Below, one piece after another: positions 3,269 through 57,396 of a stretch of 64,000 nucleotides of DNA (the first letter of the stretch is position 1; each line of letters begins with the position of its first letter). Below the pieces are notes generated by a model. That model was not told the origin of the DNA and did not search any database. It saw only the letters and a program-made list of their open reading frames with translations. The stretch is from a bacterium (GTDB lineage Bacteria > Patescibacteriota > Minisyncoccia > UBA6257 > 2-01-FULL-56-20): the NCBI GenBank assembly GCA_027310625.1, contig DAIDAM010000002.1:65123-129122 (forward strand), in the 5' to 3' direction. The translations under genes and the position numbers were made by a program.

Positions 3269-3290
3269 AGCCACAATAAAAGATTAAAAA

Positions 3291-5189
3291 ATGGAACAAT
3301 CACCTTCAAAAATTAGAAATTTTGTTGTCATAAGTCATATCGACCATGGGAAAAGCACTTTAGCCGACCGCTTTTTGGAAATCACGGGCACGGTGGAGGC
3401 GCGCCGCATGAAACCGCAGTATCTTGACCAACTTGAACTTGAAAGGGAACGCGGTATAACGATAAAGATGGCGCCTGTCAGGATGATTTATCATCCTGAC
3501 CGCGGAACAACGCGGAAAGACACGCGGAATGACGCAGGAAGTAATCTGTTGGAGGAGTATATTCTCAACCTGATTGATACTCCAGGGCACAGCGATTTTT
3601 CATACGAGGTTTCCCGCGCGCTCGCGGCCGTGGAAGGTGCAATACTCCTCGTTGACGCCACAAAGGGAATTCAAGCGCAGACACTTTCCAATTTTCGCGC
3701 CGCTAAAAAGGCGGGGCTCAAAATAATAGGCGCGGTCAACAAAATTGACCTCAACCCGCCCCGCGCGGGCGAATCGGCGCTGCTTCTCGCGGAACTTATC
3801 GGCGTTCCGGAAAAAGAAATTTTCAGGATTTCCGGAAAAACCGGCGAAGGAGTGCGGGACTTGCTTGATGCCGTTGTGGAACGGGTTCCGCCGCCCCGAA
3901 AGTCCGCGGAAAATTTTTCCCGGGCGCTGATATTCGACTCGCTCTACGACGACCATAAAGGAATAATTGCTTTCGTCCGGTTTTTCGACGGTTCTTTGAG
4001 TTCGGGAAACGAAGCGGAGCTTTTGGCTTCAAGAACAAAATTCCGCGTGAAAGAGTCGGGATATTTTTCTCCGCAGTTCAGGCCGGCTTCTTCGCTTTCC
4101 GGCGGCGAGATAGGATACGTGGCGACGGGATTGAAAGAGCCGTCGCTCGTGAAAATCGGCGATACTATCGTAGCGCGGAATCACGCAGACGGCACGCGGA
4201 ATTACGCGGAAAAAGTTCGGCGAGATTCTGCGTCAAGTCCGCGTCAGTCGGCGTCGTTGGTGTTGCCGGGCTACAAGGAGCCGTCGCCGGTGGTTTTCGT
4301 TTCGCTTTATCCCGACAGCGGAACGCAGTTCGAGGACTTGAAAAAAGCGATGGAGCGCCTGCGCCTAACCGATTCTTCGCTTTCGTTTGAGCAGGACTCG
4401 AGCGAGGCGCTGGGACGCGGTCTCAAGGCCGGATTTCTCGGCCAGCTCCACTTCGAGATAACGGCGAGCCGGCTGGAAAGGGAATTCGGGGTGAAATTCA
4501 TCGCGAGTTTTCCGTCGGTCGCCTACAGAGTTAAACTGAAAGGAAAGACGTCGGTTATAAAAGACCCCAACAATTTCCCGGACGACCCCGACGAAGTTTT
4601 ACAGCCAATGATGGGCGTGGAGATATTTTCGCCCGCGGATTACGTCAGCCAGATACTGGGCTTGAAGGAAAAGTTTCACATAGAGGTTTTGGAAATAAAA
4701 AACATCGGCAACAATGTCGTGATTTCGTCCAAGATGCCGCTCATCGAGCTTACGCGCAATTTTGACGACAGAATCAAATCGGTTTCCTCAGGATTCGCTT
4801 CTTTCAGCTATGAAATTTACGGAGAGGAGCCGGCGAAAGTCGAAAAAATGGAAATTCTGGTCAACGGCGAGCCGGTTTCGGCGCTGACGAGAATCGTTTT
4901 CAAGGACGAAGCGGAAACGGAAGCGCGCGCCACAGTGGAGCGCCTGAAGGAACTCCTGCCGAAGCAGCAGTTCGCCCAGGCGATTCAGGCAAAAGTTCGC
5001 GGGCGGATAACCGCAAGGGAAACCATTCCGGCGATGAAAAAACTGCTCGGCAATTTCGGCAAAACCGGCGGCGACAGGACGCGGAAAATGAAGCTTTGGA
5101 AAAAACAAAAGGAGGGCAAGAAAAAACTGAAGGGTATGTCGCGCGTCTCGGTTCCAACCGAGGTTTTTCGCGACCTTTTGAAGAAGTAG
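3291..5189 (+). CDS. lepA: Elongation factor 4 (LepA)
   Basis: IRNFVVISHIDHGKSTLADRFLE...LIDTPGHSDF; C-terminal LepA tail GKTGGDRTRKMKLWKKQKEGKKKLK. Contains a roughly 25-aa in-frame insert RRDSASSPRQSAS encoded by a palindromic mini-element. Confidence 0.9.
   Translation: MEQSPSKIRNFVVISHIDHGKSTLADRFLEITGTVEARRMKPQYLDQLELERERGITIKMAPVRMIYHPDRGTTRKDTRNDAGSNLLEEYILNLIDTPGHSDFSYEVSRALAAVEGAILLVDATKGIQAQTLSNFRAAKKAGLKIIGAVNKIDLNPPRAGESALLLAELIGVPEKEIFRISGKTGEGVRDLLDAVVERVPPPRKSAENFSRALIFDSLYDDHKGIIAFVRFFDGSLSSGNEAELLASRTKFRVKESGYFSPQFRPASSLSGGEIGYVATGLKEPSLVKIGDTIVARNHADGTRNYAEKVRRDSASSPRQSASLVLPGYKEPSPVVFVSLYPDSGTQFEDLKKAMERLRLTDSSLSFEQDSSEALGRGLKAGFLGQLHFEITASRLEREFGVKFIASFPSVAYRVKLKGKTSVIKDPNNFPDDPDEVLQPMMGVEIFSPADYVSQILGLKEKFHIEVLEIKNIGNNVVISSKMPLIELTRNFDDRIKSVSSGFASFSYEIYGEEPAKVEKMEILVNGEPVSALTRIVFKDEAETEARATVERLKELLPKQQFAQAIQAKVRGRITARETIPAMKKLLGNFGKTGGDRTRKMKLWKKQKEGKKKLKGMSRVSVPTEVFRDLLKK
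4182..4256 (+). repeat. Palindromic mini-element (ACGCNGA arm + TCNGCGT arm) inserted in frame in lepA
   Basis: acgcagacggcacgcggaattacgcggaaaaag...ttctgcgtcaagtccgcgtcagtcggcgtcg. Shares CGTCAAGTCCGCGTCAGTC with the cca and 23S copies. Confidence 0.6.
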
Positions 5190-6792: not shown

Positions 6793-8253
6793 ATGATCAT
6801 CATAAAAAATCTAACGAAAAATATTTTAGGCGAAACTCTTTTTGAAGAAGTGTCTTTTGTGTTGCAAAAAGGAGATAAGGTTGGCCTTGTCGGACCGAAT
6901 GGTTGCGGAAAATCTACGCTTTTGAAAATCATCCTTGGTGAAATTGAAGCTGACAGCGGCGATGTTCGAGTTGAACATGAAAATATCGGGTACTTGTCCC
7001 AAGAGATGCCTTTCAAAAGCGATGAAACAGTAGAGAGTTTTTTGTCCGCTTCTGAAAATCCAAAAGCAAAAACCGCCCTTGAAAAGGTTGGGCTTGGAAA
7101 TATCTTGCACAACATTGCGGTCAATAAACTTAGCGGTGGCCAAAAAACTCGACTATCTCTTGCAAAAATTTTATTGAACAAACCAAGCGTTTTGCTTCTT
7201 GACGAGCCGACAAACCATCTTGATTTGAAAGGATTGGAATGGTTAGAGAATTTCATACGCGATTTTAGAGGCGGTGTTTTGATTGTCTCTCACGACCGCC
7301 GTTTGCTTGATAATTCCGTCAATAAAATTCTTGAGATTGATTCGGTCAATCATAAATTTGCTGAATATGTTGGCGGATATACCGAGTATATGATTGAAAA
7401 AGAAAAGAAATTGGCTAAATGGGAAGACGAATATCAACGACAGCAAAAAGAAAAGCGGCGTCTTGAACTTTGGCTCGCACTTAAGCGGCAAGAAGCGCAT
7501 ATTCATCCTGATCCGGCGAAAGGCAGAATGATTCGAGCAAAGGAAAAATTTTTGCAGCGTGAAATTTATGACAAAGAAATTGCTCGACCAAAAAGCCAGA
7601 AAAAGATAAATAGTTTGGAACTCAAGGGCGAAGCAGCTTCTGCAAAACTCGTTGTGCGAGCCAAAAATATCGCAAAGAGTTTTCCCGGAAAGCAGCTGCT
7701 CCGTGGAATTAGTTTTGAATTGCGCGGCAGAGAGCATGTTTTATTGGCTGGAGATAATGGTTCAGGGAAAACTACTTTGCTCAAAATTCTCACAGGAGAA
7801 TTACAGCAGGACAGCGGAGAATTTAAGCTTGGCGAAAATGTCCGTTTTGGCTATTTCGCGCAAGAGCATGAAATTCTAAATCTCGACAAAACGGTCATGG
7901 ACGAATTTCTAAGTACCGACCGCTTACTTAATTCGTCCAGAAATCCGCGCTCGATTCTTGGTGCTTTTCTCTTTGGCGGTCAAAACGCGTTCAAGAAAAT
8001 TTCGAGTTTGAGCTTTGGTGAGCGAGTGCGCCTCATTTTCGCCAAGCTAACAAATCAAGAAAACGAGCTTCTTATTCTTGACGAACCGACCAATCATCTC
8101 GATATCCAATCGCGAGAGGTTATCGAGGACGCGCTTCTTGGATACAAAGGAGCAATCCTTGTCGTGTCTCACGACAGGTATTTCCTTGATAAAATTTCCG
8201 TAAATCGAATGCTCACGATTCAAAATGGAATTATCAAGGAAAAACTTGTATAA
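6793..8253 (+). CDS. ABC-F family ATPase with two ABC domains and no TMD; translation-factor or ribosome-protection type
   Basis: Two Walker A sites (GPNGCGKST, GDNGSGKTT), two LSGGQ-like signatures and two Walker B sites (LLLDEPTNHLD, LILDEPTNHLD), separated by a charged linker of about 75 aa. Gene GC is clearly lower than its neighbours. Confidence 0.8.
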   Translation: MIIIKNLTKNILGETLFEEVSFVLQKGDKVGLVGPNGCGKSTLLKIILGEIEADSGDVRVEHENIGYLSQEMPFKSDETVESFLSASENPKAKTALEKVGLGNILHNIAVNKLSGGQKTRLSLAKILLNKPSVLLLDEPTNHLDLKGLEWLENFIRDFRGGVLIVSHDRRLLDNSVNKILEIDSVNHKFAEYVGGYTEYMIEKEKKLAKWEDEYQRQQKEKRRLELWLALKRQEAHIHPDPAKGRMIRAKEKFLQREIYDKEIARPKSQKKINSLELKGEAASAKLVVRAKNIAKSFPGKQLLRGISFELRGREHVLLAGDNGSGKTTLLKILTGELQQDSGEFKLGENVRFGYFAQEHEILNLDKTVMDEFLSTDRLLNSSRNPRSILGAFLFGGQNAFKKISSLSFGERVRLIFAKLTNQENELLILDEPTNHLDIQSREVIEDALLGYKGAILVVSHDRYFLDKISVNRMLTIQNGIIKEKLV

Positions 8254-14728: not shown

Positions 14729-16795
14729 ATGAAGTTCTCATACTCATTGATTAAAAAGTTGTCGCCGCGGCTGCCGAATATTTCCAAAGCGGCAGAAACG
14801 CTCAACCTTTACTCGTTTGAAGTTGAAGACGCGGCGGGCGATTTGTTGGACATCGCTCTGCCGGCGAACAGATACTCCGACGCCGCTTCGCATCTCGGAA
14901 TCGCGCGCGAACTTTCGGCGGCGCTCGGAAAGCCGCTCAAAAATCCCGTAAAGCTCATCGTCAATCCGCCGAGCGACCAAGGATTGATCGAGGTGGAGGT
15001 GGAAAATAAAGCCGCCTGTCCGCGGTATGCCGCGCGTGTTTTTGAAATCAAAAAAATGCCGGCGACTCCGTTGTGGATGAAAAATGTTTTGAAAACCTGC
15101 GGCGTAAAATCAATAAACGGCGTCGTCGACCTGATGAATTACGTGATGCTTGAAGTCGGACAGCCGCTCCACGCTTTCGATTTCGATAAAATCGCGGACA
15201 AACGCGGACGGCACGCGGATAAACGCGGAAAGTTTCAGCGTAATTCAGCGTTAAGTCAGCATAAGTCAGCGTCAATTATTGTGAGGAAAGCCAAAAAAGG
15301 CGAGCGAATCGAGACGCTCGATGGCCAACGTCTCGAACTCGATGCGAATGACATTGTTATCGCCGACGCTTCGCGCGCCATTGCAATCGCCGGCGCAAAA
15401 GGCGGAGCGAATTCCGGCGTCGACGGGAAGACGAGGCGGATAGTCGTGGAGGCGGCGAATTTCGACCCCGTGAGGATTTTCAAAACCTCGCGGCGGCTGA
15501 AGCTCGCGACAGACGCGAGCATAAGGTTCTCGCACGGCTTGAGTCCCGCGCTCGTCGATTTCGGAATGGACAGGGTAACGGAGCTTCTCAAAAAATCCGG
15601 CGCGAAACTTGTTGATTCCGTTGATGTTTACCCGCGGCGCGCAGGCGACGAAATTATAGAGTTTGACGCGGAGAAGTACGAAAATTTCATCGGTGCCGCC
15701 GTTTCACCGGCAAAAGCGAAGAAAATTTTTGCGAGATTGTCTTTCGCCGTTGTGAAGGCACGTACCAACGCGGATAAAAAATCAGCATCAATCAGTAGAA
15801 ATCAGCATAAATCAGCGTTCTTAGTCAGAGTTCCCGCCTGGAGGACGGACATTGAAAATCCGGAGGACTTGATGGAAGAAATCGCGCGGTTCGTCGGCTA
15901 CAACAAGCTGAAACCGCAGGCGCCCGCCATTTCTCTCAAGCCGGCGGAAGAAGAAGACATAGTCGTTTTCAAAGACAGAATGAGAAAATTTTTGTCGGGC
16001 GCCGGACTGAACGAGGTTTACAACCATTCTTTTTCTGCCGAAGGCGGAAGCGCGGCAGTGGAACTTGAAAATCCGATAAGCTCCGAGTTTAAAAATCTCC
16101 GCCAGTCGCTTGCGGGCGGATTGATTAAGAATGTAAAAGACAACGGCAGATTCTTTGACGAAGTGAGAATTTTTGAAATCGGAAAAGTTTTCAAAAAAAC
16201 GAAGAGCGGCGTCGGCGAAAAATTGAATCTCGGCGTCGCCATCGGCGCGAGAAAAAAGTCGTTTATCCGCGAAGTCAAAGGCATCGTTGACGATTTGCTC
16301 AAGGGTCTCGGCGTCGCCGATTTTTACATGGCGGAATCGGGAGCGGGAAATCTTCAAATAGAAATTGATAAAAAAATAATCGGAAACATAAAAATTGTGG
16401 ATGTCGGAAAAGGCCTGCCCGCCGGCAGGCAGGGGTGGGTTGCGACCGTAGGCGAAATGAATCTTGACGCGATTCTGCCGATTGTTGAAGAAGAGCGAGC
16501 TTTCAAGCCGCTGCCGAAATATCCGGCGGTGATGCGCGACGTTTCCATTCTTCTTCCCGCGGACGTAAGAATCGGAAGAGTTCTTGAGGTTATTGACGGC
16601 GCTTCGTCGGAAATCGCGGAGAACGTTGATTTGGTTGACGAGTATGTTGACAAGAAGTTCGACGGGAAACAGAGTTTAACATTCAGAATTATTTTCCAAT
16701 CGGAGGAAAGAACGCTCACGGACGCGGAAGTGAATCGCGATCTTTCGAAAATAATCGCGGCGCTCAAAAAATCTTTCAAGGCGGAAATCAGATAA
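14729..16795 (+). CDS. pheT: Phenylalanine--tRNA ligase beta subunit (short form)
   Basis: Position directly after pheS; tRNA-binding N-terminus, B3/4 and B5 regions, C-terminal FDGKQSLTFRIIFQSEERTLTDAEVN. Two in-frame palindromic mini-element inserts. Confidence 0.85.
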   Translation: MKFSYSLIKKLSPRLPNISKAAETLNLYSFEVEDAAGDLLDIALPANRYSDAASHLGIARELSAALGKPLKNPVKLIVNPPSDQGLIEVEVENKAACPRYAARVFEIKKMPATPLWMKNVLKTCGVKSINGVVDLMNYVMLEVGQPLHAFDFDKIADKRGRHADKRGKFQRNSALSQHKSASIIVRKAKKGERIETLDGQRLELDANDIVIADASRAIAIAGAKGGANSGVDGKTRRIVVEAANFDPVRIFKTSRRLKLATDASIRFSHGLSPALVDFGMDRVTELLKKSGAKLVDSVDVYPRRAGDEIIEFDAEKYENFIGAAVSPAKAKKIFARLSFAVVKARTNADKKSASISRNQHKSAFLVRVPAWRTDIENPEDLMEEIARFVGYNKLKPQAPAISLKPAEEEDIVVFKDRMRKFLSGAGLNEVYNHSFSAEGGSAAVELENPISSEFKNLRQSLAGGLIKNVKDNGRFFDEVRIFEIGKVFKKTKSGVGEKLNLGVAIGARKKSFIREVKGIVDDLLKGLGVADFYMAESGAGNLQIEIDKKIIGNIKIVDVGKGLPAGRQGWVATVGEMNLDAILPIVEEERAFKPLPKYPAVMRDVSILLPADVRIGRVLEVIDGASSEIAENVDLVDEYVDKKFDGKQSLTFRIIFQSEERTLTDAEVNRDLSKIIAALKKSFKAEIR
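15198..15277 (+). repeat. Palindromic mini-element copy (ACGCGGA arm + TCAGCGT arm) in frame in pheT
   Basis: gacaaacgcggacggcacgcggataaacgcggaaag + tttcagcgtaattcagcgttaagtcagcataagtcagcgtcaatt, translated ADKRGRHADKRGKFQRNSALSQHKSASI. Confidence 0.6.
15762..15838 (+). repeat. Second mini-element copy (ATCAGCA/ATCAGCG heptamer tract) in frame in pheT
   Basis: aaaaatcagcatcaatcagtagaaatcagcataaatcagcgttcttagtcag, translated KKSASISRNQHKSAFLV. Confidence 0.55.
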
Positions 16796-17233: not shown

Positions 17234-18868
17234 ATGCGATTCATCATTCCCGAAGAAATATCGGACATTTCAAAAAAGCTCAAGAAAGCCGGTTTCAAGG
17301 TGTACCTCGTCGGCGGGTGCGTTCGCGACCTTTTGACGAACGTAGTGCCGCCCCTTCGGGGCGAGCCTCGCCCTGACGGGCGGGAACCGAAGGACTGGGA
17401 CATAGCGACGGACGCGAAGCCGGATGAGGTGCAGAAAATTTTTCCCGACAGCGTCTACGAAAACGAATTCGGCACCGTTTTGGTGAAACTAAAACCGCTG
17501 ACCGGCGCAGATTTACCCGCCAAAGTTTCCGAAGGAAATTCAGGCGGGCAGGCGCAGAAAAACGCAGACACGTTTCCGCGTCAATCCGCGTCAAGTCCGC
17601 GTCAGTCCGCGCTGAATGTGGTGGAAATCACCACGTTCCGTTCCGAGGGAAAGTACACCGACAAGCGCCATCCCGACGAAGTGAGATTCGCGGAAACGAT
17701 TGAAGAGGATTTGTCGCGCCGCGATTTCACGATCAACGCCATCGCCCTCAACATCGGCGGCGTCGCGCAAAAACTGGTTGACCCGTTCAACGGGCAGGAA
17801 GATTTGAAAAAAGGAATTGTCCGCGCCGTCGGTAATGCCGAAGAAAGATTCAACGAAGACGCATTACGCCTTATCAGAGCGGTACGCTTCGCTTCCGAGC
17901 TTGGATTTTCCGCCGGAGGCGGACCGGTCTCGGGCTGGCAGATTGAGTTCAACACCAGACGCGCGATAGAAAAGTTCGCCGGGCTTTTGGAAGCGATAGC
18001 GAAGGAAAGGATACGCGACGAATTTACGAAGATAATAATGTCCGACGGAGCGGCGGGAGGAATTATTCTTCTTGAAGAGCTCGATTTGCTCCGCTACGTT
18101 TTGCCGGAACTTCGCGAGGGCATCGGCGTCGGCCAAAACAAACATCACATTTACACCGTTTTCGAGCACAACGTGAAATCTTTGGATTACTCGGCGAAGA
18201 AAAATTATTCCCTCGAAGTTCGTCTCGCATCCCTGCTTCACGACCTCGGCAAACCGAAAGCAAAAAGAGGCGAAGGACCGGACTGCACTTTCTACGGACA
18301 CGAAGTCGTCGGCGCCAAAATGGCCGTGAGAGCTTTAGAACGTTTGCGTTTTTCGAAAGACGTAATTGAAAAAGTAGTCCATCTCGTCCGCTACCACATG
18401 TTTTACTACAACGTCGGCGAGGTGAGTGAAGCGGGAGTGCGTCGTTTTATCGCCCGCGTCGGTCCGGAAACCGTTCCGGATTTATTGAAACTTCGCGAAG
18501 CGGACCGCATCGGCTCCGGCGTGCCGAAAGCCGTCCCTTACAAAATGCGCCACCTTCTTTTCATGATTGAAAAGGTTAAAAACGACCCCGTTTCGCCGAA
18601 GATGCTCAAAGTGAAAGGCGACGACGTGATGAAAATTCTCGGAATCGAGCCAGGCCCGCGCGTCGGCTACATACTTTCCGCGCTTCTTGAAGAAGTTCTT
18701 GACGACCCTTCCAAAAACGATTCGCCGCATCTTGAAAGGCGCGTCCGCGAGCTCGGAAAATTGAGCGATTCCGAACTGAACGGAATTTCAAAAAAGGCGA
18801 AAGAAAAAAAGGATGAATTCCAAGCGGGAATTGAAGAAGAAATGAAAAAAAAGTATTATGTCCGCTAA
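17234..18868 (+). CDS. cca: CCA tRNA nucleotidyltransferase / poly(A) polymerase family with HD domain
   Basis: YLVGGCVRDLL head motif and HD domain (LLHDLGK, HE...RYHM). Carries an in-frame insert of about 35 aa ending TFPRQSASSPRQSAL from a mini-element. Confidence 0.85.
   Translation: MRFIIPEEISDISKKLKKAGFKVYLVGGCVRDLLTNVVPPLRGEPRPDGREPKDWDIATDAKPDEVQKIFPDSVYENEFGTVLVKLKPLTGADLPAKVSEGNSGGQAQKNADTFPRQSASSPRQSALNVVEITTFRSEGKYTDKRHPDEVRFAETIEEDLSRRDFTINAIALNIGGVAQKLVDPFNGQEDLKKGIVRAVGNAEERFNEDALRLIRAVRFASELGFSAGGGPVSGWQIEFNTRRAIEKFAGLLEAIAKERIRDEFTKIIMSDGAAGGIILLEELDLLRYVLPELREGIGVGQNKHHIYTVFEHNVKSLDYSAKKNYSLEVRLASLLHDLGKPKAKRGEGPDCTFYGHEVVGAKMAVRALERLRFSKDVIEKVVHLVRYHMFYYNVGEVSEAGVRRFIARVGPETVPDLLKLREADRIGSGVPKAVPYKMRHLLFMIEKVKNDPVSPKMLKVKGDDVMKILGIEPGPRVGYILSALLEEVLDDPSKNDSPHLERRVRELGKLSDSELNGISKKAKEKKDEFQAGIEEEMKKKYYVR
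17552..17611 (+). repeat. Palindromic mini-element copy in frame in cca
   Basis: ggcgcagaaaaacgcagacacg + tttccgcgtcaatccgcgtcaagtccgcgtcagtccgcg. Confidence 0.6.
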
Positions 18869-22142: not shown

Positions 22143-22439
22143 GCCGACCTCCAGTCAAAAAAATTTTTCAAATGGCCTCTTGTTTTGATTCATTATAAAT
22201 TTTTTTCGAACTTGCGCAATTATCCCCGGCTTCCAAAGCAGGTTGTATAAAAATCACGCAAAATAAGGCGAAAAATGCCGCTTTAAGTTTTCCACAATCG
22301 TTTCCTGGAAAGAAAATCGGTGTTGGTATAATAGATGCAGTAAAAATCCTGCGCCTTTCGCCGAGTATTCGACCGTTTTTCGGAAGATGCGGGATAAGGA
22401 TGAAAAGGTCGACACATTATTATTCACTGAAACTAACAA

Positions 22440-23126
22440 ATGATAGCTCAAAATTGGACGGACGTTGTCGTGGCTTCGCTGCAAAGGCTCTGGGACGGAG
22501 TGGCCAGCGTTGTTCCGAGTTTGGTTGGCGCGCTGGTTATAATAATCGTCGGCCTTGTCGTTGCCTACGTTCTCGGCACGCTTGTCGTGGAAAAAATCCT
22601 TGAGGCGCTGAAGTTTGATGCCTTGCTCCAAAAGCTCGGTCTCTCTCCCTATTTTGAAAGAGGGGGATTGCAGATGAAGGGCGCAAGATTCGTCGGACGT
22701 CTCGTTTACTGGTTCGTGGTTATTTCCTTCCTTCTTGCCGCATCCGATGTTTTGGGACTCTACGCGTTCTCAGCTTTCCTTAAGGATGTATTGTTCTACA
22801 TCCCGAATGTCATCGTTGCCGTCCTTATCATGGTGGCCGCGGTGGTTGTCGCCAACTTTGTGAGGAAAGTTGCTTCGGCTTCGGTGATGAGCGCAAAGCT
22901 TCACGCTGCGCACTTCGTCGGTTCCATGGCTTGGTGGGCGATTGTCATCTTCGGCCTTCTGACGGCGCTTGTTCAGCTGAACGTCGCTGTCAGCGTCATC
23001 AATACCGTCATCACCGGTTTCGTTGCCATGCTCGCCCTGGCGGGCGGACTTGCTTTCGGACTCGGTGGAAAGGATTATGCCGCGGCGCTCATCAACCGCC
23101 TGAGAGAAACGACAGGTTCAAGATAG
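22440..23126 (+). CDS. Membrane protein with repeated TM helices (MscS N-terminal / TM-helix-repeat-like)
   Basis: 228 aa, hydrophobic repeats. Confidence 0.4.
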   Translation: MIAQNWTDVVVASLQRLWDGVASVVPSLVGALVIIIVGLVVAYVLGTLVVEKILEALKFDALLQKLGLSPYFERGGLQMKGARFVGRLVYWFVVISFLLAASDVLGLYAFSAFLKDVLFYIPNVIVAVLIMVAAVVVANFVRKVASASVMSAKLHAAHFVGSMAWWAIVIFGLLTALVQLNVAVSVINTVITGFVAMLALAGGLAFGLGGKDYAAALINRLRETTGSR

Positions 23127-23143
23127 GATTTGCCGATATTTAC

Positions 23144-23178
23144 GCAAAACGTCCGCCCAAGGCGGACGTTTTGTTTTT
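23144..23178 (+). terminator. Terminator hairpin gcaaaacgtccgcc-caa-ggcggacgttttg, copy 1
   Basis: 12-bp stem, 3-nt loop, followed by gtttttct. Identical 30-nt copy at 23711-23740. Confidence 0.6.
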
Positions 23179-23208
23179 CTCCGCCATTTAATGTGATAAA
23201 CTTGTTAT

Positions 23209-23442
23209 GTGAATATTATTTTCAGCAATCACGCGTTATTGAAAATAAATCACAGAAATATAAGCAAGGAATATGTACTGAAAGCGGTGAATAATCCCGA
23301 TTTTTCACAACCAAGCCGTAATTTCAGAGAAGAGTTGTATAAAAAGTTCGGCAACAGGTATTTGAAAGTTGTTGTGAAAAGAACCAGAAAAAATATGATT
23401 ATTGTTACCGCTCACTGGATTGCGAAATTCAGAAGTAGTTGA
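23209..23442 (+). CDS. DUF4258-family putative toxin
   Basis: 77 aa; pattern FSNHALLKINHRNISKEYV...VVVKRTRKNMIIVTAHW fits the DUF4258 consensus from memory. Confidence 0.6.
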   Translation: MNIIFSNHALLKINHRNISKEYVLKAVNNPDFSQPSRNFREELYKKFGNRYLKVVVKRTRKNMIIVTAHWIAKFRSS

Positions 23443-23454
23443 TAAAATGAAACC

Positions 23455-23679
23455 ATGAAAATTTCTTACGATAAAGATGTAGATGCGCTTAATGTTTCTC
23501 TCCGAGCCGGGGTGGTGGCTAAAACCGTTGAAATAGCCCCCGAAGTTTTGGTTGATTTGGATAAAAAGGGAAACCCTCTTTATTTAGAGATAATCGGAGC
23601 GAGCGAAAAAATCGGCAAGAAAAATTTCCGGAAAGTTGTCGTAGGCAAAAAATCTATTCCTTTGCCGTCTTTTGCGTAA
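23455..23679 (+). CDS. DUF2283-family putative antitoxin
   Basis: MKISYDKDVDALNVSL...LYLEIIGAS matches the DUF2283 N-terminal consensus from memory; located 12 nt after the toxin. Confidence 0.6.
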   Translation: MKISYDKDVDALNVSLRAGVVAKTVEIAPEVLVDLDKKGNPLYLEIIGASEKIGKKNFRKVVVGKKSIPLPSFA

Positions 23680-23710
23680 TTCGGCGGCGTGAAATTTATC
23701 GCAAAACGTC

Positions 23711-23741
23711 CGCCCAAGGCGGACGTTTTGCTTGTGGAAAA
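23711..23741 (+). terminator. Terminator hairpin copy 2, identical to 23144-23173
   Basis: gcaaaacgtccgcccaaggcggacgttttg repeated verbatim after the toxin-antitoxin pair. Confidence 0.55.
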
Positions 23742-23804
23742 CTTTTTGACAGTTTTGAGGGGGGGGTAATATGAGATTATTAAAACTAATCCTTCTTAAT
23801 TACT

Positions 23805-24950
23805 ATGAGCCAGGAAAAACCGTATCAGCCAACTAGGAAAGAAATAGAAAAGGCAGAGAATATAATTAGTTCTGAGCAAAGGGTAAAATCACAAGAAAGA
23901 ATCCAAGATATCGAGGGTTGGGTGCTCGCGGAGTTAAATGCGCTGACCTCCGAGGAAGACTACAAAGAGCAAGATTCCGAGAAAGCCAAATCCCTTTTAG
24001 GCAGGCTTGGTTTAGAAAAGTTTAGCGAAATTCCTCAGGAAGTTTTTGAGTCACCACGGATTGAGGCTGCAGTAAAAGAATTGCTACCCTCGATATTGGC
24101 AAATGATCCATGGACTTTTATTGACGATTCCTACCTCTTCCAACATTTCTTGAGAAAGTTTGTTACCCCCGAACTCAAACCACAGATGATGGAAGGAGCT
24201 AGAAAGTTGCTACAAAAAAACTATGTCAATTCTTTTGAAGTTACGACCGAGTTTCTCAGGAGTTTTGGAGTCGACGATGAAAAAGAATTTTGGAGGTCGG
24301 CCGATAATAATGCAATGATATCGGATGCTGTAAGTAACCATTTAGAGCATAGCGAGCAAATATTTGGTTATCATTCTCGCGATGGCCGAAGCATGTGGAT
24401 TGGCGGCGTTCATGCCGCGGGTGGATTTAAAGCATACTTAAAAGATCTCGGAGTTTCTGTCGAACCAATTAAAGAGGGCGGCGCAACGTGGATTAAAGAA
24501 ACCTTAAGCGGTAAACGCAATTTATTATTCGGAGGGAAAGAGACCGAACCAACGCAATTGGCTTTTAAGATCGTCGACGTGGTACATGAATTTGAGTTTG
24601 ATGAACCGTCGTTTTTTTCCTCCGAGGAAATCATTTCATCATTAGAGCACTACATTTTTCAATTCGCGAAGGAGCAATTTAGTCGTCGGCTTTTCGAGTT
24701 ACAACCTCCTGAAGATATGCGTGGACGAGGATTCCCACAGGATCAAATAGATCTGGAGAAAACAAGAAGACGCATAAAGCCGCTCGATAAAAAGATAGAA
24801 ATTGCAATAGTCGATCGGCAGTTAGAAGCTTTAATGCGCTATTTTCCTGCACTGTCTGAGGACAGACTAAAAAGTATTTTGGAAAATGCGTTCGAAGTAG
24901 CACTGTCTGATCAACAATCAAGAACGCGCTTTATAGAAATCTCGGATTAG
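23805..24950 (+). CDS. Hypothetical protein of 381 aa, low GC, no recognised domain
   Basis: Long ORF with AT-rich codon usage unlike the core genes. Confidence 0.5.
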   Translation: MSQEKPYQPTRKEIEKAENIISSEQRVKSQERIQDIEGWVLAELNALTSEEDYKEQDSEKAKSLLGRLGLEKFSEIPQEVFESPRIEAAVKELLPSILANDPWTFIDDSYLFQHFLRKFVTPELKPQMMEGARKLLQKNYVNSFEVTTEFLRSFGVDDEKEFWRSADNNAMISDAVSNHLEHSEQIFGYHSRDGRSMWIGGVHAAGGFKAYLKDLGVSVEPIKEGGATWIKETLSGKRNLLFGGKETEPTQLAFKIVDVVHEFEFDEPSFFSSEEIISSLEHYIFQFAKEQFSRRLFELQPPEDMRGRGFPQDQIDLEKTRRRIKPLDKKIEIAIVDRQLEALMRYFPALSEDRLKSILENAFEVALSDQQSRTRFIEISD

Positions 24951-25522
24951 TTTTATTTGAATTACCGCTATTGTTTAGTGGGTATGTATAATGGCGCAAT
25001 TGGTTTCATATCCAGGTTTTTTGAAGAATTAAGAGGGTAAAGCCAGTCATTGTTTATGTGCAAAAGGTTGGGGATTGACATTTTTAGCGTAGCGATTACC
25101 ATAATAACCAACTGATGAACAGCAAAAAAATAACCCACAAAAGAAGCGGCTGAAACCCGATTTTTCGTCGTGCTTTGAAGCCGCTCTTGAAGCGGTTTTT
25201 CATTTTGCGGAGAAGCGAAAGCAGTGACTGCCGATTGAAAATAGCAGTGATAAGCACTGCGTTCGAAGTTCAAATTGTTCGAACCGTTCGAAACGTTAAT
25301 TCAGTTGAACCTCGAACATCGAACCACGAACGCGATGCGAAGCATTGTAATATCAGATTCCCTGCACTGTACTTTTGCGAAAGTGGCGTCCCGCCGCAAT
25401 CGCAATCCAATTTCAACAGTGAGCAGGGAAATATCCAGTGCTTTGCACTGGGAAGCACGAAATTTCAAGCACGAAATCTGAAACTATATTGTTTCAAATT
25501 TCAAATTTGAGATTTCGAATTT

Positions 25523-25566: not shown

Positions 25567-25586
25567 TTAACGCTTCGCTTTATGCG

Positions 25587-25672
25587 ATCCGAACATTCCG
25601 AATTTCATCCGAATTACCCGAATATTCGGGACATTCGGATGCATTCGTAGATTCGGATTGCGTAGGCGAATG
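25587..25672. repeat. Palindromic repeat family B (CCGAATATTCGGG...CATTCGGATGCATTCGTAG.TTCGGATTGCG), copy 1, in the 23S leader
   Basis: Near-identical copy at 27955-28040 inside the 23S. Confidence 0.55.
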
Positions 25673-25827
25673 AAATGAGCATGCATTAAGGGCTAATGGT
25701 GGATGCCTAGACATCAAAAGGCGACGAAGGACGCGGCGTAGCTGCGATAAGCTTCGGTGAGGTGCGTAGCAACCGATGACCCGGAGATTTCCGAATGGAG
25801 CAATCCAACACAGTAAACCTGTGTTGT

Positions 25828-25969
25828 CGTGCCTCACTATCGTTCGGCACTATTGCTATCGCGCGAATGGGCGAATTATTACGAACATACGAATTATTAA
25901 ACTGATTCGTAAGTTCGTATCCTATTCGTAAATTCGTGCGATAGAAGTGGCGAGCGGCAGCGAGGCACG
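25828..25969. repeat. 23S palindromic insertion, family A copy 1 (CGCGCGAATnnGCGAAT...TTACGAAC.TACGAAT...TTCGTAAATTCGTGCGATAGAAGTGGCGAGCGGCAGCGAGGCAC)
   Basis: Flanked by complementary GTGCCTCAC...GCGAGGCAC; interrupts conserved 23S sequence before GAAACATCTCAGTA. Confidence 0.6.
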
Positions 25970-26049
25970 ACGCAAACCCGCTGAAGTGAAACATCTCAGT
26001 AAGCGGAGAAAAAGAGAACAATCAAGTCCTCTGTTTCACATATCCCATC

Positions 26050-26235
26050 AATTTGACAGAGCGAATCTTGAGACAGATTCGCGGCGCGAGGAGCGCAGTG
26101 TGCCGGTAGGCACATAAGCGACGAGCAACAAAGAAGCTGGCCAAGATTCGCCTGCCCGAAAGGGAAACGAAAAATTGGCCGATTTCTGTGTTGCTCCTCG
26201 TCGACGTAGCTTTGGCTACAATCTCCTCGTTGCGC
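26050..26235. repeat. 23S insertion, family C copy 1 (GATTCGCGGCGCGAGGAGCGCAGTGT...ATAAGCGACGAGCAACAAA...GTTGCTCCTC)
   Basis: Second copy at 30650-30900. Confidence 0.5.
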
Positions 26236-26341
26236 CTTGAAGTCGTCTCATTCTTTCGCTTTCAAATTTGACGGTATATGTGAAATAGAGGACGTTATTC
26301 CCTCAGTAGCGGCGAGCGAAAAGGGAAGAGCCGAAACTAAT

Positions 26342-26475
26342 CGTGCCTCACCGCCGTTCAGCACTCCATCGCGCGAATAGCCGAATTTTTACGAACGTAC
26401 GAATGAAACCAATTCGTATGTTCGCGCCGATTCGTAAATTCGTGCGATAGAAGTGGCGAGCGGCAGCGAGGCACG
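26342..26475. repeat. 23S family A copy 2
   Basis: cgtgcctcaccgccg...ttcgtaaattcgtgcgatagaagtggcgagcggcagcgaggcacg. Confidence 0.6.
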
Positions 26476-26507
26476 ATTGGGGTAACAAGAGAGAAACGCT
26501 CTTAAAG

Positions 26508-26580
26508 TGTCACGTGTCATGGGTCATGTGTCAGGATTTTTCTTGATACTTGATACTTGACACCTGATACTTTGAGGTGG
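26508..26580. repeat. Tandem heptamer tract in the 23S (GTGTCAC/GTGTCAT/GGGTCAT/GTGTCAG then CTTGATA x3)
   Basis: Direct reading. Confidence 0.5.
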
Positions 26581-26813
26581 AGAAGTTACAAAATTTTTGC
26601 CTAGCTGAATCTGCTGGAAAGCAGAACCAAAGACGGTGAAAGTCCGGTAGGCGAAAGGCAAAAATCTTCTTAGTTTCCCGGCGCACATAATTTATGTGCG
26701 CAGCCGAGCACAAAACTTGTTTTGTGCTCTGGTTTATCTTCAGTACTTCGAGGCAAAAAAACTTCGAAGGAATTAGCGAGTACTATCTCGCAAGGCTAAA
26801 TACTTTTGATGAT

Positions 26814-26850
<37 letters not shown>

Positions 26851-26904
26851 CAGGCCGGTGAGGCCGTTGAAATAGAACCTGAAACCATTTGCCTACAAGG
26901 ATTC

Positions 26905-27033
26905 GGAGCTCTCCGCTATCGCTTTGAGCTCCTCTATCGCGCGAATATGCGAATTCTTACGAATGTACGAATTCGTAAATTCGTATTTTTTTCGTAATTC
27001 GTGCGATGGGGAACTCCGAGCGGTAGCGAGGAG
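26905..27033. repeat. 23S family A copy 3
   Basis: ctatcgcgcgaatatgcgaattcttacgaatgtacgaattcgtaaattcg...ttcgtgcgatgggg. Confidence 0.55.
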
Positions 27034-27140
27034 TGACGAAGTGCCTATTGAAGAATGAGCCAACGACTTATGGTGCATTGCTTGTGTAAGTACCTTTAAG
27101 GGATGTACGCGCAGGGAGACCGAGTCTTAATAGGGCGTAT

Positions 27141-27266
27141 CGTGTCTCACTATTGTTCGACACGTTATCGCGCGAATAAGCGAATAATTACGAACTTACG
27201 AATTCGTATATTCGCAACCGATTTGTAAATTCGTGCGATAGAAGTGGCGAGCGGCAGCGAGGCACG
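27141..27266. repeat. 23S family A copy 4
   Basis: cgtgtctcactattg...gcgcgaataagcgaataattacgaacttacgaattcg...ttcgtgcgatagaagtggcgagcggcagcgaggcacg. Confidence 0.6.
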
Positions 27267-27607
27267 AAAAGCAGTGCATCATAGACCCGAAGCCGGATGA
27301 GCTTGCCTTGGCCAGGTTGAATTTCGCAGAAATGCGGGAGGAGGACCGAACTGGTGGGTTGTTCAAAACCCTCGGATGAGCTGAGGCAAGGAGTGAAAAG
27401 CTAATCGAATTCGGTAATAGCTGGTTCTCTCCGAAATAGTTTTAGGACTAGCGGTGAAAGTTACCTGTGGGGGTAGAGCTACTGGATGATTCGTAAAGGC
27501 CGAAAGGCCGGCGAATCAATCAAACTCCGAATACCGCAGGCCATATTTCACTAGTCAGACTGTGGGGGCTAAGCTCCATGGTCAAAAGGGAAACAGCCCA
27601 ACGCTCA

Positions 27608-27720
27608 ACTTCGTTTCGCTTCATCGCGCGAACAAGCGAATTTTACGAATGTACGAATCTGTATTCGTAAGTTCGTAATTTATTCGTAAATTCGTGCGAT
27701 GGATGCGAGCGGAAACGAGC
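27608..27720. repeat. 23S family A copy 5
   Basis: catcgcgcgaacaagcgaattttacgaatgtacgaatctgtattcgtaagttcgtaatttattcgtaaattcgtgcgatgg. Confidence 0.55.
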
Positions 27721-27954
27721 ATCAGATCATCATCTAAGGCCCCTAAATGCGCGCTAAGTGTTAAAGGCAGTCGTAATCCATAGACAGATAGGAGGTTGGC
27801 TTAGAGGTAGCCATCCTTTAAAGAGTGTGTAACAACTCACTATTCGACTCGCCTCGCTTCGCGAGAGCGAAGCTGGGTGGGACCGCGGCGCCGAAAATGT
27901 ACCGGGGCTAAGCGCGCTGCCGAAGATATGAATCGTTCGCTTCGCTCACTGTTG

Positions 27955-28040
27955 CAATCCGAACAATCCGAATTCCATCCGAATGTTCCGAATATTCGGG
28001 GCATTCGGATGCATTCGTAGGTTCGGATTGCGGTAGCGAG
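27955..28040. repeat. Family B copy 2 inside the 23S
   Basis: caatccgaacaatccgaattccatccgaatgttccgaatattcggggcattcggatgcattcgtaggttcggattgcgg. Confidence 0.55.
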
Positions 28041-28587
28041 CGGAGCGAGCGGTGGTAGGAGAGCATTCCCGTTGCGCCGAAGGAAGATCCGCGAGGACTT
28101 CTGGAGCGGCGGGAAGAGAGAATGTTGGCATGAGTAACCACAATCCTAATGAGAAATTGGGACCCCGAAAATCCAAGGTTTCCGTGGCACTGGCAATCAA
28201 CCACGGGTTAGTCGGCCCTAAGGCGATGGCGAAAGCCGCAGCCGATGGACAGACGGTTAATATTCCGTCACTCCCGCAGTTTTCAATGGAGGGACGAGAT
28301 TCAGTAGATGGAGCGCCTTATTGGTTTGGCGTCCTTGCGCGAGGATTCCCGGCTGGAAAATCCGTCGGGATGCGTTCAATCGCAAATCCCAGCAAAAAGG
28401 CAACTCCGATGTTTTCATTGGGGGAGTTCGTCGAGCGGATCTCCAAGAAAAACTTCTAAGGTTAAAATTGCGGAATCCGTACCGTAAACCGACACTGGTG
28501 GATAGGGCGAGAAGCCCAAGGGGAACGAGTGATTCGCCGTTAAGGAACTCGGCAAAAAAGCGGCCGTAAGTTAGCGATAAGGCCTGC

Positions 28588-28660
28588 CTTGTTCGGATGT
28601 CGGACTTCGGACGTCAGATTTCGGATAATCTGGCATCTGATTTCTGAAATCCGATATCTG
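28588..28660. repeat. Palindromic TCGGATG/TCAGATT heptamer tract in the 23S
   Basis: ttcggatgtcggacttcggacgtcagatttcggataatctggcatctgatttctgaaatccgatatctgaac; the two halves are reverse complements. Confidence 0.5.
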
Positions 28661-29290
28661 AACTAGGCCGCAGCGAAAGTTTTCCTGGCGACTGTTTACC
28701 AAAAACACAGCTCCCTGCGAACTCGCAAGAGGATGTATAGGGGGTGACGCCTGACCGATGCGAGAAGGTCAAGACTGCCTGTCGCATCTCACTAAGGTGA
28801 GATGCTCTGATATTCATTGAAATTAGTTCGCCGAAGGCGAACGAAAATTAATAGAAATTATTGGTGATAAATTTCGCGAGCGAAGCGAGCAAATTTCTAT
28901 AAATTTCAGCGAAGCGAATATCAAAAGCACCGAACTTTAGTGAGGTGCGGCGGAGTGGTTCAAGCCCTCGTCAATGTCAGCAATAACTATAATTGTTCTA
29001 AGGTAGCGCAGTTCCTTTCCGGGTAAGTTCCGGAGCGCACGAATGGCGTAACGACTGGGAAACTGTCTCGACGGCGAGCTCGGTGAAAATGCGATTCCCG
29101 TGAAGACGCGGGATACCTGCAGCGGGACGGAAAGACCCCGGAAGCTTTACTGCAGCTTGGTATTGGCTTTAAGGTCTTGATGCGTAGCGTAGTGGGGAGG
29201 GTTTGAAGCTCCGATTTCGGTCGGAGTGGACCCGACAATGAAACACCCATCTTTAGGACTTTAAATTCTAACCATACCAGAACCCCTCTT

Positions 29291-29390
29291 TGCGCATAAG
29301 CGCAAAGCGCAGAAGGACGCAGAATGAACGCGGACTAACGCAGAATTTTTTTCAGCGTGGGTCTGCGTAAAGTCAGCGTGAGTCAGCGCT
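29291..29390 (+). repeat. Composite palindromic mini-element (ACGCAGA arm + TCAGCGT arm) in the 23S, copy a
   Basis: gcgcagaaggacgcagaatgaacgcggactaacgcagaa + tttttttcagcgtgggtctgcgtaaagtcagcgtgagtcagcgc, closed by cctctttg ... caaagagg. Confidence 0.6.
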
Positions 29391-29630
29391 TTGTTTACTC
29401 GTGAACAAAGAGGGGAAGCTGGTGAGGGACAGTGCTTGGCGGGCAGTTTCAATGGGGCGTTGTCCTCCTAAAGAGTAACGGAGGAGTCTATTAAGGTCGG
29501 CTTGGCCCGGATGGAAACCGGGCTGGACGCGTAAAGGCAGAAGCCGGCTTAACTGCAAGACCTACAAGTCGCGCAGATGCGAAAGCAGAGCTTAGTGACC
29601 CGACCACTATGTCAGTGCTTCGCACTGACC

Positions 29631-29708
29631 GCAGAATAACGCGGAACGAACGCAGAACTACGCAGAACTTTCAGCGTAAGTCAGCGTCAAGTCCGCGTGA
29701 GTCCGCGG
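29631..29708 (+). repeat. Composite palindromic mini-element in the 23S, copy b
   Basis: cgcagaataacgcggaacgaacgcagaactacgcagaac + tttcagcgtaagtcagcgtcaagtccgcgtgagtccgcgg. The right arm is near-identical to the lepA and cca copies. Confidence 0.65.
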
Positions 29709-29917
29709 CCAATGCGGAGCATTGGCTCTTCATAGAAAGGTGGGAGACACCGGATAAAAGCTACTCCGGGGATAACAGGCTGGTGAGATCCGAGAGTCCC
29801 TATCGACGATCTCGCTCGGCACCTCGATGTCGGCTCATCCTAGCGCGGGGCTGGAGAAGGTCCCAAGCGTTTGGCTGTTCGCCAATTAAAAGGATACGTG
29901 AGCTGGGTTCAGACCGT

Positions 29918-30585
29918 CAAAATAACTGAACCGAGGACATCAAGCACGGCGGCTCGTCGCCGCAAGGCGACCCGAATAAATCGACTCATATCGGTGGAGT
30001 CCTAGCACGGCAACCTGTCATATGCTAGGATAATACCGAGGGAAGTTGCATATGTTGAATCTTTCGTCAACGCAAAAAGCATATTTAGCGGGATTTCTAG
30101 ACGGCGATGGGAGTATCTACGTGCGGCTGAAACCAAATACCGATTACAAGTATGGTTTTCAGGTTGCACCGTACGTTATTCTTTTCCAATCGTCCAAAGA
30201 ACGTAAGAAATTTGAAAAGGTTTGTTCCTTAATTGGTCTCGGATACATTCGAGAAAGAAAGGATAGAATTTTGGAATACACCATCGGCAGGGAAAAAGCA
30301 ATCAAGTTTTTTCTTAAAATGGTGATTCCGTATCTGATTCTAAAAAAGAAGCAAGCAATTCTTACGTTGGAAATCCTGGATATGAAAATGAAAATCAAAA
30401 ACAAGAACGATTTTCAGGCGTTGATGAATAAGATAGATATTTTTCGTAATCTGAATTATTCGAAAAAGCGTAAAAAGCATGTGTTAACCTCGTAGAGACT
30501 ACACGTCGATCCCGAGCACATAAAGCGTTGCGTGCTTCGGTGGTGGTATAGTCCGACACTCTTAGTAATAGGAGATTACAGTATG
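29918..30585 (+). mobile_element. Presumed group I intron in the 23S at the I-CreI-type site (between CGT and CGTGAGACAG), carrying a LAGLIDADG ORF
   Basis: Conserved exon sequence GGGTTCAGACCGT | ... | CGTGAGACAGGTCGGTCCC is reconstituted if 29918-30585 is removed; the insert ends in G and the 5' exon ends in T. Confidence 0.6.
30046..30495 (+). CDS. LAGLIDADG homing endonuclease, single-motif homodimeric type
   Basis: KAYLAGFLDGDGSIYV motif; 149 aa; AT-rich; located inside the rRNA insert. Confidence 0.85.
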   Translation: MHMLNLSSTQKAYLAGFLDGDGSIYVRLKPNTDYKYGFQVAPYVILFQSSKERKKFEKVCSLIGLGYIRERKDRILEYTIGREKAIKFFLKMVIPYLILKKKQAILTLEILDMKMKIKNKNDFQALMNKIDIFRNLNYSKKRKKHVLTS

Positions 30586-31262: not shown

Positions 31263-31380
31263 AAAAGCTCAATTTCGTATTCGCTTTATCGCTCGAATAA
31301 ACGAATCTTTACGAACATGCGAATTCGTAAGTTCGTATTACTATTCGTAAATTCGTGCGATGATGCGAGTGACGCGAGCA
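31263..31380. repeat. Family A copy 6, directly after the 23S 3' end and before the processing stem
   Basis: atttcgtattcgctttatcgctcgaataaacgaatctttacgaacatgcgaattcgtaagttcgtattactattcgtaaattcgtgcgatgatgcgag. Confidence 0.55.
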
Positions 31381-56821: not shown

Positions 56822-56856
56822 TAAAAATACCCGTGACTAAGTCACGGGTATTTTTA
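56822..56856. terminator. Bidirectional terminator aaaaatacccgtgac-taa-gtcacgggtattttt
   Basis: Perfect 10-bp stem flanked by A-run and T-run. Confidence 0.6.
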
Positions 56857-56860
56857 TCTG

Positions 56861-56932: not shown

Positions 56933-56965
56933 GATTTATTTTTGCACGTCTGTCCCATCCATTTT

Positions 56966-57112: not shown

Positions 57113-57141
57113 GTAATTAAAAAAGCACGGGGCAGGTTGGG

Positions 57142-57384: not shown

Positions 57385-57396
57385 TGATGATAGTGC

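Follow-up and report, generated by a model that had tools for sequence, protein, structure and literature searches.

Probable insertion of a predicted toxin-antitoxin cassette with duplication of a host terminator in a Patescibacteriota genome

How does the same hairpin come to stand, letter for letter, on both sides of a small gene pair? The question is raised by a stretch of 64,000 nucleotides (nt) from a bacterium of the Patescibacteriota (assembly GCA_027310625.1, contig DAIDAM010000002.1, positions 65,123 to 129,122), hereafter the window, in which two small open reading frames (ORFs) with DUF4258 and DUF2283 domains, predicted to encode a toxin and its antitoxin, lie between two copies of a terminator-like hairpin. 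The answer that we consider probable is that the two hairpins are the two copies of a ∼45-nt target duplication of the terminator of the upstream channel gene, made by the insertion of a ∼0.5-kb toxin-antitoxin (TA) module, and that this signature recurs at each insertion of the module. The features on which the argument turns are as follows.

23135–23179, + strand: left repeat copy, with an 8-nt 5′ flank, the core at 23143–23173, the hairpin at 23144–23174 and a T-tail; intrinsic terminator of the channel gene
23192–23202, + strand: TGTGATAAACT, which resembles an extended −10 element, lies 6 nt ahead of the toxin start and marks the left end of the cassette; putative promoter
23209–23442, + strand: DUF4258 ORF, predicted BECR-fold toxin of 77 amino acids (aa), GTG start; Pfam PF14076, E = 3.2e-8, 34.2 bits against a cut-off of 25
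23455–23679, + strand: DUF2283 ORF, predicted antitoxin of 74 aa; Pfam PF10049, E = 3.8e-11, 43.4 bits against a cut-off of 23
23691–23736, + strand: right repeat copy, with a diverged 5′ flank, the core at 23700–23730, the hairpin at 23701–23731 and a diverged tail, CTTGT
Left junction of the occupied site: core followed by TTTTTCTCC
Right junction of the occupied site: GAAATTTAT followed by core

The 30-mer GCAAAACGTCCGCCCAAGGCGGACGTTTTG has exactly two matches in the whole window, both on the + strand, at 23144–23173 and 23701–23730, and none in 100 dinucleotide-preserving shuffles. A preliminary description of this locus had reported the verbatim duplication, which stands, and had placed the second copy at 23711–23740, which is 10 nt too high. 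With the preceding C, the exact repeat is 31 nt long (23143–23173 and 23700–23730, a spacing of 557), and this core is embedded in a gapped repeat of 40/43 identical positions (23135–23176 versus 23691–23733; z = 25.7, 0/500 shuffles); the total duplication around the core amounts to ∼45 nt. Apart from those in the 23S rRNA gene, it is the sole short-range repeat of the window. Each of its copies forms a stem of 13–14 bp closed by a CAA loop (copy 1, −23.6 kcal/mol, z = −5.7; copy 2, −25.9 kcal/mol, z = −5.0), in a 13-3-13 layout with a perfect stem and 31 nt overall. Copy 1 runs from a 14-bp stem into the T-tract TTTTGTTTTTCT, is called by a terminator scan and has the makeup of an intrinsic terminator. 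Copy 2 has the same stem followed by CTTGTGG; it lacks a proper T-tract, is not called by the scan and does not have that makeup. The differences between the copies spare the core (0/31) and fall in the flanks (3/12; Fisher p = 0.018), or in flanks and tail taken together (5/15; p = 0.002).

We searched for this hairpin, with the stem fixed and the loop free, in 185,579 species genomes and in JGI metagenome contigs, two collections from which the source genome is absent. The stem pattern matched one locus in each, and both belong to the same organism, an AT-rich member of the Patescibacteria, where a single copy of the same 13-bp stem, its loop being TGA, stands between an S1-like gene and ftsH (L001 1269–1297, the same as L005 946–974). 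We take this to be an independent terminator, whose stem would have converged on that of the window. The idea that the hairpin is a common genome-wide element was rejected: with two copies in 64 kb and one unrelated locus per collection, it is not the widespread terminator at many unrelated positions that the preliminary description had named as fatal to its own reading.

We then compared the slot that holds the pair with the same slot in relatives, chosen by homologs of the channel protein at 80%–85% aa identity. In the window, the slot and its anchors read as follows.

22440–23126, + strand: MscS-like channel gene, 228 aa, left anchor of the slot; Pfam MS_channel_1st_1, E = 7.7e-15
23746–23772, + strand: promoter-like TTGACA-15 nt-TAATAT ahead of the 381-aa gene, read from the sequence; putative function
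23805–24950, + strand: 381-aa lineage-specific orphan gene, a separate cargo in the slot
25075–25102, + strand: promoter-like site of the 23S rRNA gene (TTGACA-16-TACCAT), right anchor of the slot; the 23S gene starts at 25676

The channel protein has 5433 homologs; the relatives at 80%–85% identity lie in metagenome-assembled genomes (MAGs) of Paceibacteria, and the closest are annotated as Liptonbacteria, Yanofskybacteria and Paceibacterota. Five of the contigs (L006, L008, L011, L014 and L016) are colinear with the window at the channel gene, and the rRNA leader is homologous in L008, L011, L014 and L016. What lies between the anchors differs from one lineage to the next.

L014: the channel gene, one terminator hairpin and, a few bases later, the rRNA promoter; an empty site
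L008: a reverse-strand 227-aa gene after the channel gene
L006 (also L007), 6913–7408: a Phd/YefM-like ORF and a PemK/MazF toxin; channel protein 85% identical, contig ending inside the toxin gene
L011: the DUF4258/DUF2283 pair with no second hairpin; a 163-aa ORF starts 10 nt past the antitoxin stop
L016: the DUF4258/DUF2283 pair, then an unrelated 334-aa gene (BLASTP against the 381-aa orphan, E = 0.41)

The gap between the channel terminator and the rRNA promoter is therefore a variable slot, in which the window, L016 and L011 hold three mutually unrelated orphan genes, and it forms a hot spot for the exchange of different TA families and orphan genes. All relatives carry a single hairpin at the position of copy 1, in the frame CAAAA, stem, TTTTGTTTTT (CAAAA-stem-TTTTG-TTTTT), with a different GC-rich stem in each; the six orthologous terminators were compared by individual folds, a MAFFT alignment having put the stems out of register. 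Since a hairpin occupies this position in every relative, copy 1 is the channel gene's own terminator, the sequence of which is not itself conserved. A relative with an empty site and a single hairpin, for which the preliminary description had proposed to look, exists in L014, where the repeated unit is present once, as is generally expected of an insertion with target-site duplication.

Beyond this slot, the same pair was found in three further contexts. Each time it has the orientation of the gene before it, and a piece of the local host sequence stands in direct repeat on its two sides.

L017/L018/L019: between a methyltransferase gene and rpsO; a repeat of 47/52 from another terminator hairpin, both copies folding, z = 24
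L027/L028/L029: after a Mg-chelatase/ComM-like gene; 39/42 repeated, corresponding to the last 13 codons and the stop, with the right copy 2 nt past the antitoxin stop, z = 26
L020–L024: within the ATP synthase operon; a degenerate atpG 5′ end just upstream of the toxin, in blocks of 25/31 and 19/22, each with 0/1000 shuffles

At the last of these sites the atpG relic contains an in-frame stop, and the intact atpG start lies after the module. The repeats measure 43 nt in the window and 52, 42 and ∼55 nt or more (atpG) at the other sites, where two of them are coding sequence and non-palindromic, and each of these patterns was seen in several independent assemblies. The sequence common to the sites is limited to the two ORFs and ∼20 nt upstream, including the 11-mer TGTGATAAACT, which recurs at the unrelated genomic site of L017 with the same 6-nt spacing to the toxin start. 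The empty-site comparison covers the slot of the window; at the other sites the repeat is recognizable as part of a host gene (the 3′ end of the Mg-chelatase gene, the 5′ end of atpG). Control inserts subjected to the same repeat test, namely four orphan genes of the slot, a ParE-like TA pair in L017 and the other insert of L022, gave no significant repeat (z from −1.4 to 2.3). In addition, the toxin gene of L011 is 86% nt identical to that of L017, at a different site, versus 73% to those of the window and L016, at the same site, which shows that the tree of the module does not follow its location.

Some of these loci carry further small features. The ParE-like pair of L017 (1957–2410), 2 kb upstream of the module, is not flanked by repeats. 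The same contig has, between its antitoxin and right repeat and 22 nt from that repeat, an inverted 21-nt fragment of a toxin 5′ end (4949–4969, 81% complementary), possibly the remnant of a second, inverted cassette and specific to that site. In L022, an insert of ∼670 nt with two small ORFs (2955–3624) separates atpA from the relic atpA-atpG junction, and a 26-codon ORF, MENELSSELQFWDYLSDEALAKSKL, lies between the antitoxin and atpG (4226–4386) and by eye resembles the N-terminal fragment of another antitoxin; this ATP synthase operon seems to have been hit more than once. At the site of L025, L027 and L028, an identical antitoxin is followed from ∼646 onward by a reverse-strand LysM/M23 peptidase gene in L025 versus a 304-aa forward gene in L027/L028, and several contigs break at the module edges, which suggests rearrangement at the population level.

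How old is the insertion in the window? Positions 22402–23764 are colinear in one piece with L016 3957–5307 (74.6% nt identity). This piece spans the channel gene, copy 1, both ORFs, the copy 2 position and the TTGACA promoter, and stops at the unrelated 381- and 334-aa genes; for each repeat copy, the flanks in one contig have their orthologs in the other. In comparison with L011, the channel gene is 75% identical at the nt level and 84% at the aa level, the toxin 73% and 69%, the antitoxin 80% and 84%, and the rRNA leader 79% nt, the module thus being as diverged as its own flanks. Copy 2 is absent from L011, where homology to the window stops at the antitoxin stop. From that comparison we had for a time considered that copy 2 arrived with the 381-aa gene, an idea rejected on the colinearity of L016 through copy 2 and the promoter to 23764.

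In L016 (4755–4995), the toxin gene is frameshifted near codon 25 and AHW has become AYR near the C terminus, but its antitoxin has stayed intact. Where copy 2 stands in the window, L016 retains AAGGGACGTTTTT, which is the right arm of the window core at the aligned position, in a sequence that no longer folds (z = −0.09). From its sequence this looks like a decaying module at a stage toward loss, although an assembly error would be possible as well. As the window is colinear with a contig that has a decayed copy 2 and a frameshifted toxin, the duplication predates the split of the two lineages. The perfect 31/31 core is therefore not a simple leftover of the insertion, and because the flanks have diverged while the core is identical, a second process must be assumed, be it gene conversion or ongoing recombination of the copies. 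The best reading of these alignments would be that the duplication is old and that recombination of one copy with the other has prevented the cores from diverging. The preliminary description, which attributed the repeat to insertion of a small cassette by target duplication or gene conversion, is thus partly supported: it was right in kind, as to a TA-type cassette and a duplicated host terminator, and gains from the recurrence at three other sites and the negative controls, but it was incomplete on the age of the event and on the second process, since the identity is not a fresh scar and the event is old.

Part of this evidence could be read differently. The core of the channel terminator might have been pasted recently, by gene conversion or template switch, over a different and weak terminator that followed the antitoxin, in which case the repeat would be silent on how the cassette arrived. 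Such an ectopic copy would fit the confinement of identity to the 31-nt core with differing flanks, the lack of copy 2 in L011, and the copy 2 position of L016, which does not fold and is not significantly similar to L016's own terminator. We nevertheless consider it improbable, because the retention of AAGGGACGTTTTT at the aligned position in L016 places a hairpin-like copy already in the common ancestor, and because repeats derived from the host flank the module at three other sites, two of them not hairpins, and are lacking in the controls. An ectopic copy accounts for the identity of the core and not for the existence of the duplication, and is best seen as the second step of the target-duplication account.

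The cassette itself is predicted to be a type II TA pair, in which a small all-beta antitoxin comes after an RNase-type toxin of the BECR fold. In a hidden Markov model search both ORFs scored above the curated Pfam cut-offs, in agreement with the domains named in the preliminary description, and the lower GC that it had noted is also borne out (0.32–0.39 across the pair versus 0.51–0.55 in the upstream channel gene). The DUF4258 ORF has an additional weak match to PBECR3, and its GTG first codon aligns with an ATG in L016. The two genes are co-oriented with a 12-nt gap, a spacing shared by L011, L016, L017, L022 and L027, and are kept as a unit at every locus examined. A single-sequence AlphaFold2 (AF2) model of the toxin is weak, with a predicted local distance difference test score (pLDDT) of 72, and its fold search gave no significant match, RelE coming at rank 2 (E = 0.19). 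The AF2 model of the antitoxin is all-beta (pLDDT 81); searched against PDB, it gave no significant match and no recognizable DNA-binding fold. No match was found for the module proteins in PDB by sequence, or for the toxin, the antitoxin or the 381-aa orphan in PADLOC and NCBIfam.

Homologs of the antitoxin form 404 clusters at 70%–86% identity across many lineages of the Candidate Phyla Radiation (CPR). Plasmid and phage searches returned no homologs of the module, and viral contigs a single distant DUF2283 (42% identity), beside an HNH gene and without repeats. Between sites the antitoxin is much more conserved than the toxin, at 82% versus 49% aa identity for the window against L020 and 75% versus 41% against L025. 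This contrast raises the question of which partner of the pair is constrained.

In its two small, adjacent and co-oriented genes, its conservation as a unit and its patchy, mobile scatter, the pair resembles type II systems with RelE/ParE (BECR-fold) toxins that are encoded toxin-first, such as HigBA, BrnTA and MqsRA. DUF4258 is listed among the BECR-fold TA toxin families (PMC11980606; bioRxiv 10.64898/2026.08.28.747851), with a Table 1 entry that gives its target as unknown and no experimental reference (PMC11980606). The module departs from these systems in having the toxin first, whereas the usual order for DUF4258 is antitoxin first (PMC11980606), in having as partner a DUF2283 protein whose all-beta model has no recognizable DNA-binding domain, and in its more conserved antitoxin. 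No conserved operator was seen upstream of the module across sites.

How would such a module move? Under the target-duplication reading, insertion would produce a duplication of 40–60 nt of target without a recombinase encoded by the cassette. Our preferred guess is that it would do so by fill-in of staggered breaks or by a replication template switch at a stalling hairpin; the main alternative mechanism would be that a circular copy with the repeat integrates by a single crossover of the Campbell type. The empty-state junction would then read GATATTTA followed by core and CTTGTGG, and the excised circle GAAATTTAT followed by core and TTTTTCTCC. Once inserted, the module would leave the left copy to terminate the channel gene and the right copy to end or insulate the TA transcript, and the pair would act by addiction, a stable toxin being neutralized by a labile antitoxin. 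The 31-nt cores would stay identical since the copies keep recombining, through gene conversion or through excision and re-integration via the repeat, and the direct repeats would permit precise loss once the toxin is dead, returning the locus to the empty state. The cassette ends of the window, L017 and L027 showed no terminal inverted repeats, and we found no integrase or transposase domains in the ORFs scanned between 10995 and 49221, which comprise housekeeping genes and one LAGLIDADG ORF. Together with the variable repeat length, this lack of terminal inverted repeats and of a recombinase argues against a transposase or a site-specific integrase.

Several points weigh against this reading. 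Only four independent sites lie behind the pattern, and repeat lengths of 42 to ∼60 nt with no common terminal motif imply no defined enzyme. Selection for insertions that restore a terminator or a gene end could exaggerate the regularity, and a 31-nt core is short for RecA-driven conversion. The two copies of L016 are no longer significantly similar to each other (z = 0.3) and L011 is without the right copy; among the three lineages with the module at this slot, the window alone gives direct evidence. As for the pair, toxin activity is predicted by family assignment, the fold searches having given no placement, and the conservation of antitoxin over toxin is atypical for type II systems, being the reverse of their usual pattern.

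A recombinase encoded elsewhere could also have moved the cassette, if the hairpins were integron attC sites or Xer/pdif sites. Palindromic sites on either side of a small module do resemble integron arrays as well as pdif modules, both of which typically carry TA pairs and orphan genes, and the 381-aa orphan comes after copy 2 as a next cassette would. We hold this to be very unlikely. The attC sites of integrons measure 57–141 nt, pair imperfectly with extrahelical bases and have intI and attI nearby, and the hairpin of the window has neither these unpaired bases and this length nor the 11-6-11 layout of dif. It is, moreover, orthologous to a host terminator whose stem differs in every relative; the repeats elsewhere include non-palindromic coding sequence; no integrase was found in the scanned ORFs (10995–49221); and the orphan has no flanking repeat.

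The pdif modules of Acinetobacter plasmids are small, often TA pairs, and are flanked by 28-bp sites of the XerC/XerD type in an 11-6-11 layout. Like them, the cassette is a recombinase-free module of ∼0.5 kb bracketed by short palindromic-looking sites; unlike them, it is chromosomal, belongs to the CPR, and has flanks in direct repeat that copy the host sequence at each target (a terminator, or the 3′ or 5′ end of a gene), with a 13-3-13 layout in the window. With the cassettes of sedentary chromosomal integrons, which are compact, promoter-poor, often TA pairs or orphans, and separated by similar hairpin-forming sites, it shares that general plan, whereas here there is no attC architecture, no IntI, attI or array, and the hairpin is a host terminator.

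Insertions that duplicate tens of bases of target are known from other sources. The insertion sequences IS1634 and IS1549 make long, variable direct repeats, and spacer integration by Cas1-Cas2 duplicates the CRISPR repeat, a hairpin-forming unit of ∼30 nt, on both sides of the insert. The analogy is one of mechanism only, as the insert here is a 0.5-kb gene pair with no transposase, terminal inverted repeats or cas genes; nor does the cassette look like a transposon or a miniature inverted-repeat transposable element, which are bounded by terminal inverted repeats and duplicate a fixed length of target, where the repeat lengths here vary. Cis-mobilizable elements (CIMEs) lack an integrase and are flanked by att repeats, and islands that target tRNA genes have att direct repeats of 40–60 nt. 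As in these, direct repeats of 40–60 nt of target flank the insert and one copy restores the interrupted gene end (atpG, Mg-chelatase), but the closely related cassettes described here use four unrelated targets, which a site-specific integrase would disallow.

A further possibility, which we regard as highly unlikely, is that the hairpins are operators bound by the antitoxin or the TA complex and kept identical by selection for autoregulation, perhaps with looping. Autoregulation at palindromic operators is common among type II TA operons, and copy 1 extends over the place where the −35 region of the toxin promoter would be expected. FseA and QseM, transcriptional regulators of integrative and conjugative elements, also contain DUF2283 domains (PMC4755241). 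Yet antitoxins that are 84%–86% identical (L011, L016 and L017) lie behind completely different upstream sequences with no conserved palindrome, the modeled antitoxin shows no recognizable DNA-binding fold, and the empty site of L014 also has the terminator to which the hairpin is orthologous.

The Logan assemblies of two sequencing runs, SRR5161795 and SRR5161788 (k = 31), bear on whether the locus was assembled correctly. In these, the contig with the channel gene stops inside copy 1 and the contigs with the 381-aa gene start exactly at the first base of copy 2, because a k = 31 graph breaks at a 31-nt repeat. This shows that the repeat is present in the reads, without confirming the joins. 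Exact look-ups of the toxin and antitoxin proteins returned no contig. That a metagenome assembler threaded a foreign or strain-variant fragment through the shared 31-mer is just as implausible as an operator. In favor of such an artefact, the window is part of a MAG contig, 31 nt is a common k-mer size and the joins are unconfirmed by Logan. Against it, three lineages assembled independently have the module at one and the same position with colinear surroundings, the sequences beside the two copies differ from each other as a real duplication predicts, and mismatched bracketing repeats recur elsewhere in several independent assemblies, which a graph artefact cannot yield.

A bolder proposal goes beyond the window, and we put it forward tentatively and with considerable doubt. 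The DUF4258/DUF2283 pair may be the cargo, or possibly the agent, of an undescribed minimal mobile cassette of CPR bacteria, ∼0.5 kb long and with neither recombinase nor terminal repeats, which would insert co-oriented at gene ends and terminators with target duplications of 40–60 nt and may still be cycling through the 31-nt cores in the population of the window. The strong conservation of DUF2283 could then mean a role in cassette movement, beyond that of a mere antidote. In the papers that we could search, we found neither TA cassettes of CPR bacteria that come with a duplicated terminator or target nor any description of long target duplications specific to this module. TA pairs are selfish and patchily distributed, and the movement of their chromosomal copies outside plasmids, phages, integrons and transposons is largely unexplained. 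Likewise, CPR bacteria have tiny genomes with few recognizable mobile elements, and their gene gain is poorly known. Four sites with a duplicated target, an empty site, a decaying copy and negative controls provide a concrete, testable footprint of mobile TA cassettes.

The remainder of the slot is occupied by the 381-aa orphan, which the preliminary description had listed after the cassette, directly ahead of the rRNA leader. The block that holds the TTGACA promoter is conserved with L016 up to window position 23764, after which the two contigs carry unrelated genes. The orphan is cargo of its own, specific to the lineage and placed after a conserved promoter, and does not belong to the TA cassette. 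Its ORF has no match in Pfam, NCBIfam or PADLOC and finds only itself among 5.8 billion clusters, and no repeats flank it. We also considered whether the orphan genes of the slot are bracketed by a duplicated rRNA promoter and rejected this, as the match is limited to the TTGACA motif and is not significant.

Downstream of the slot, the 23S rRNA gene (25676–30030) measures 4,355 nt against a model of 2,925 positions, with no 16S gene ahead of it. It is followed by a LAGLIDADG ORF at 30046–30495 and, 1.5 kb downstream, by the 5S gene. The 23S region holds four to five copies of a repeat of ∼130–150 nt that forms a very strong hairpin (25583–28050 and 31309–31361; −86 kcal/mol, z = −13), as well as a 98-nt repeat pair at 25583 and 27953. 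Further along, a tRNA cluster lies on the minus strand at 56853–57463. A tRNA-like 3′ half at ∼56959–57036, the fourth of the cluster, is called by neither ARAGORN nor Rfam; of the others, Ile and Val are ARAGORN calls, and a weaker tRNA at 57394–57463 comes from Rfam. Dispersed across the window are elements of ∼60–90 nt built of ACGCGGA...TCCGCGT units (4174–4253, 15193–15271, 17553–17611, 29308–29346, 29630–29707 and 50529–50608). They fold as periodic bulged hairpins (z from −2.6 to −5.0) and sit inside long ORFs, including the genes for PheRS beta and the CCA-adding enzyme, and inside the 23S rRNA gene.

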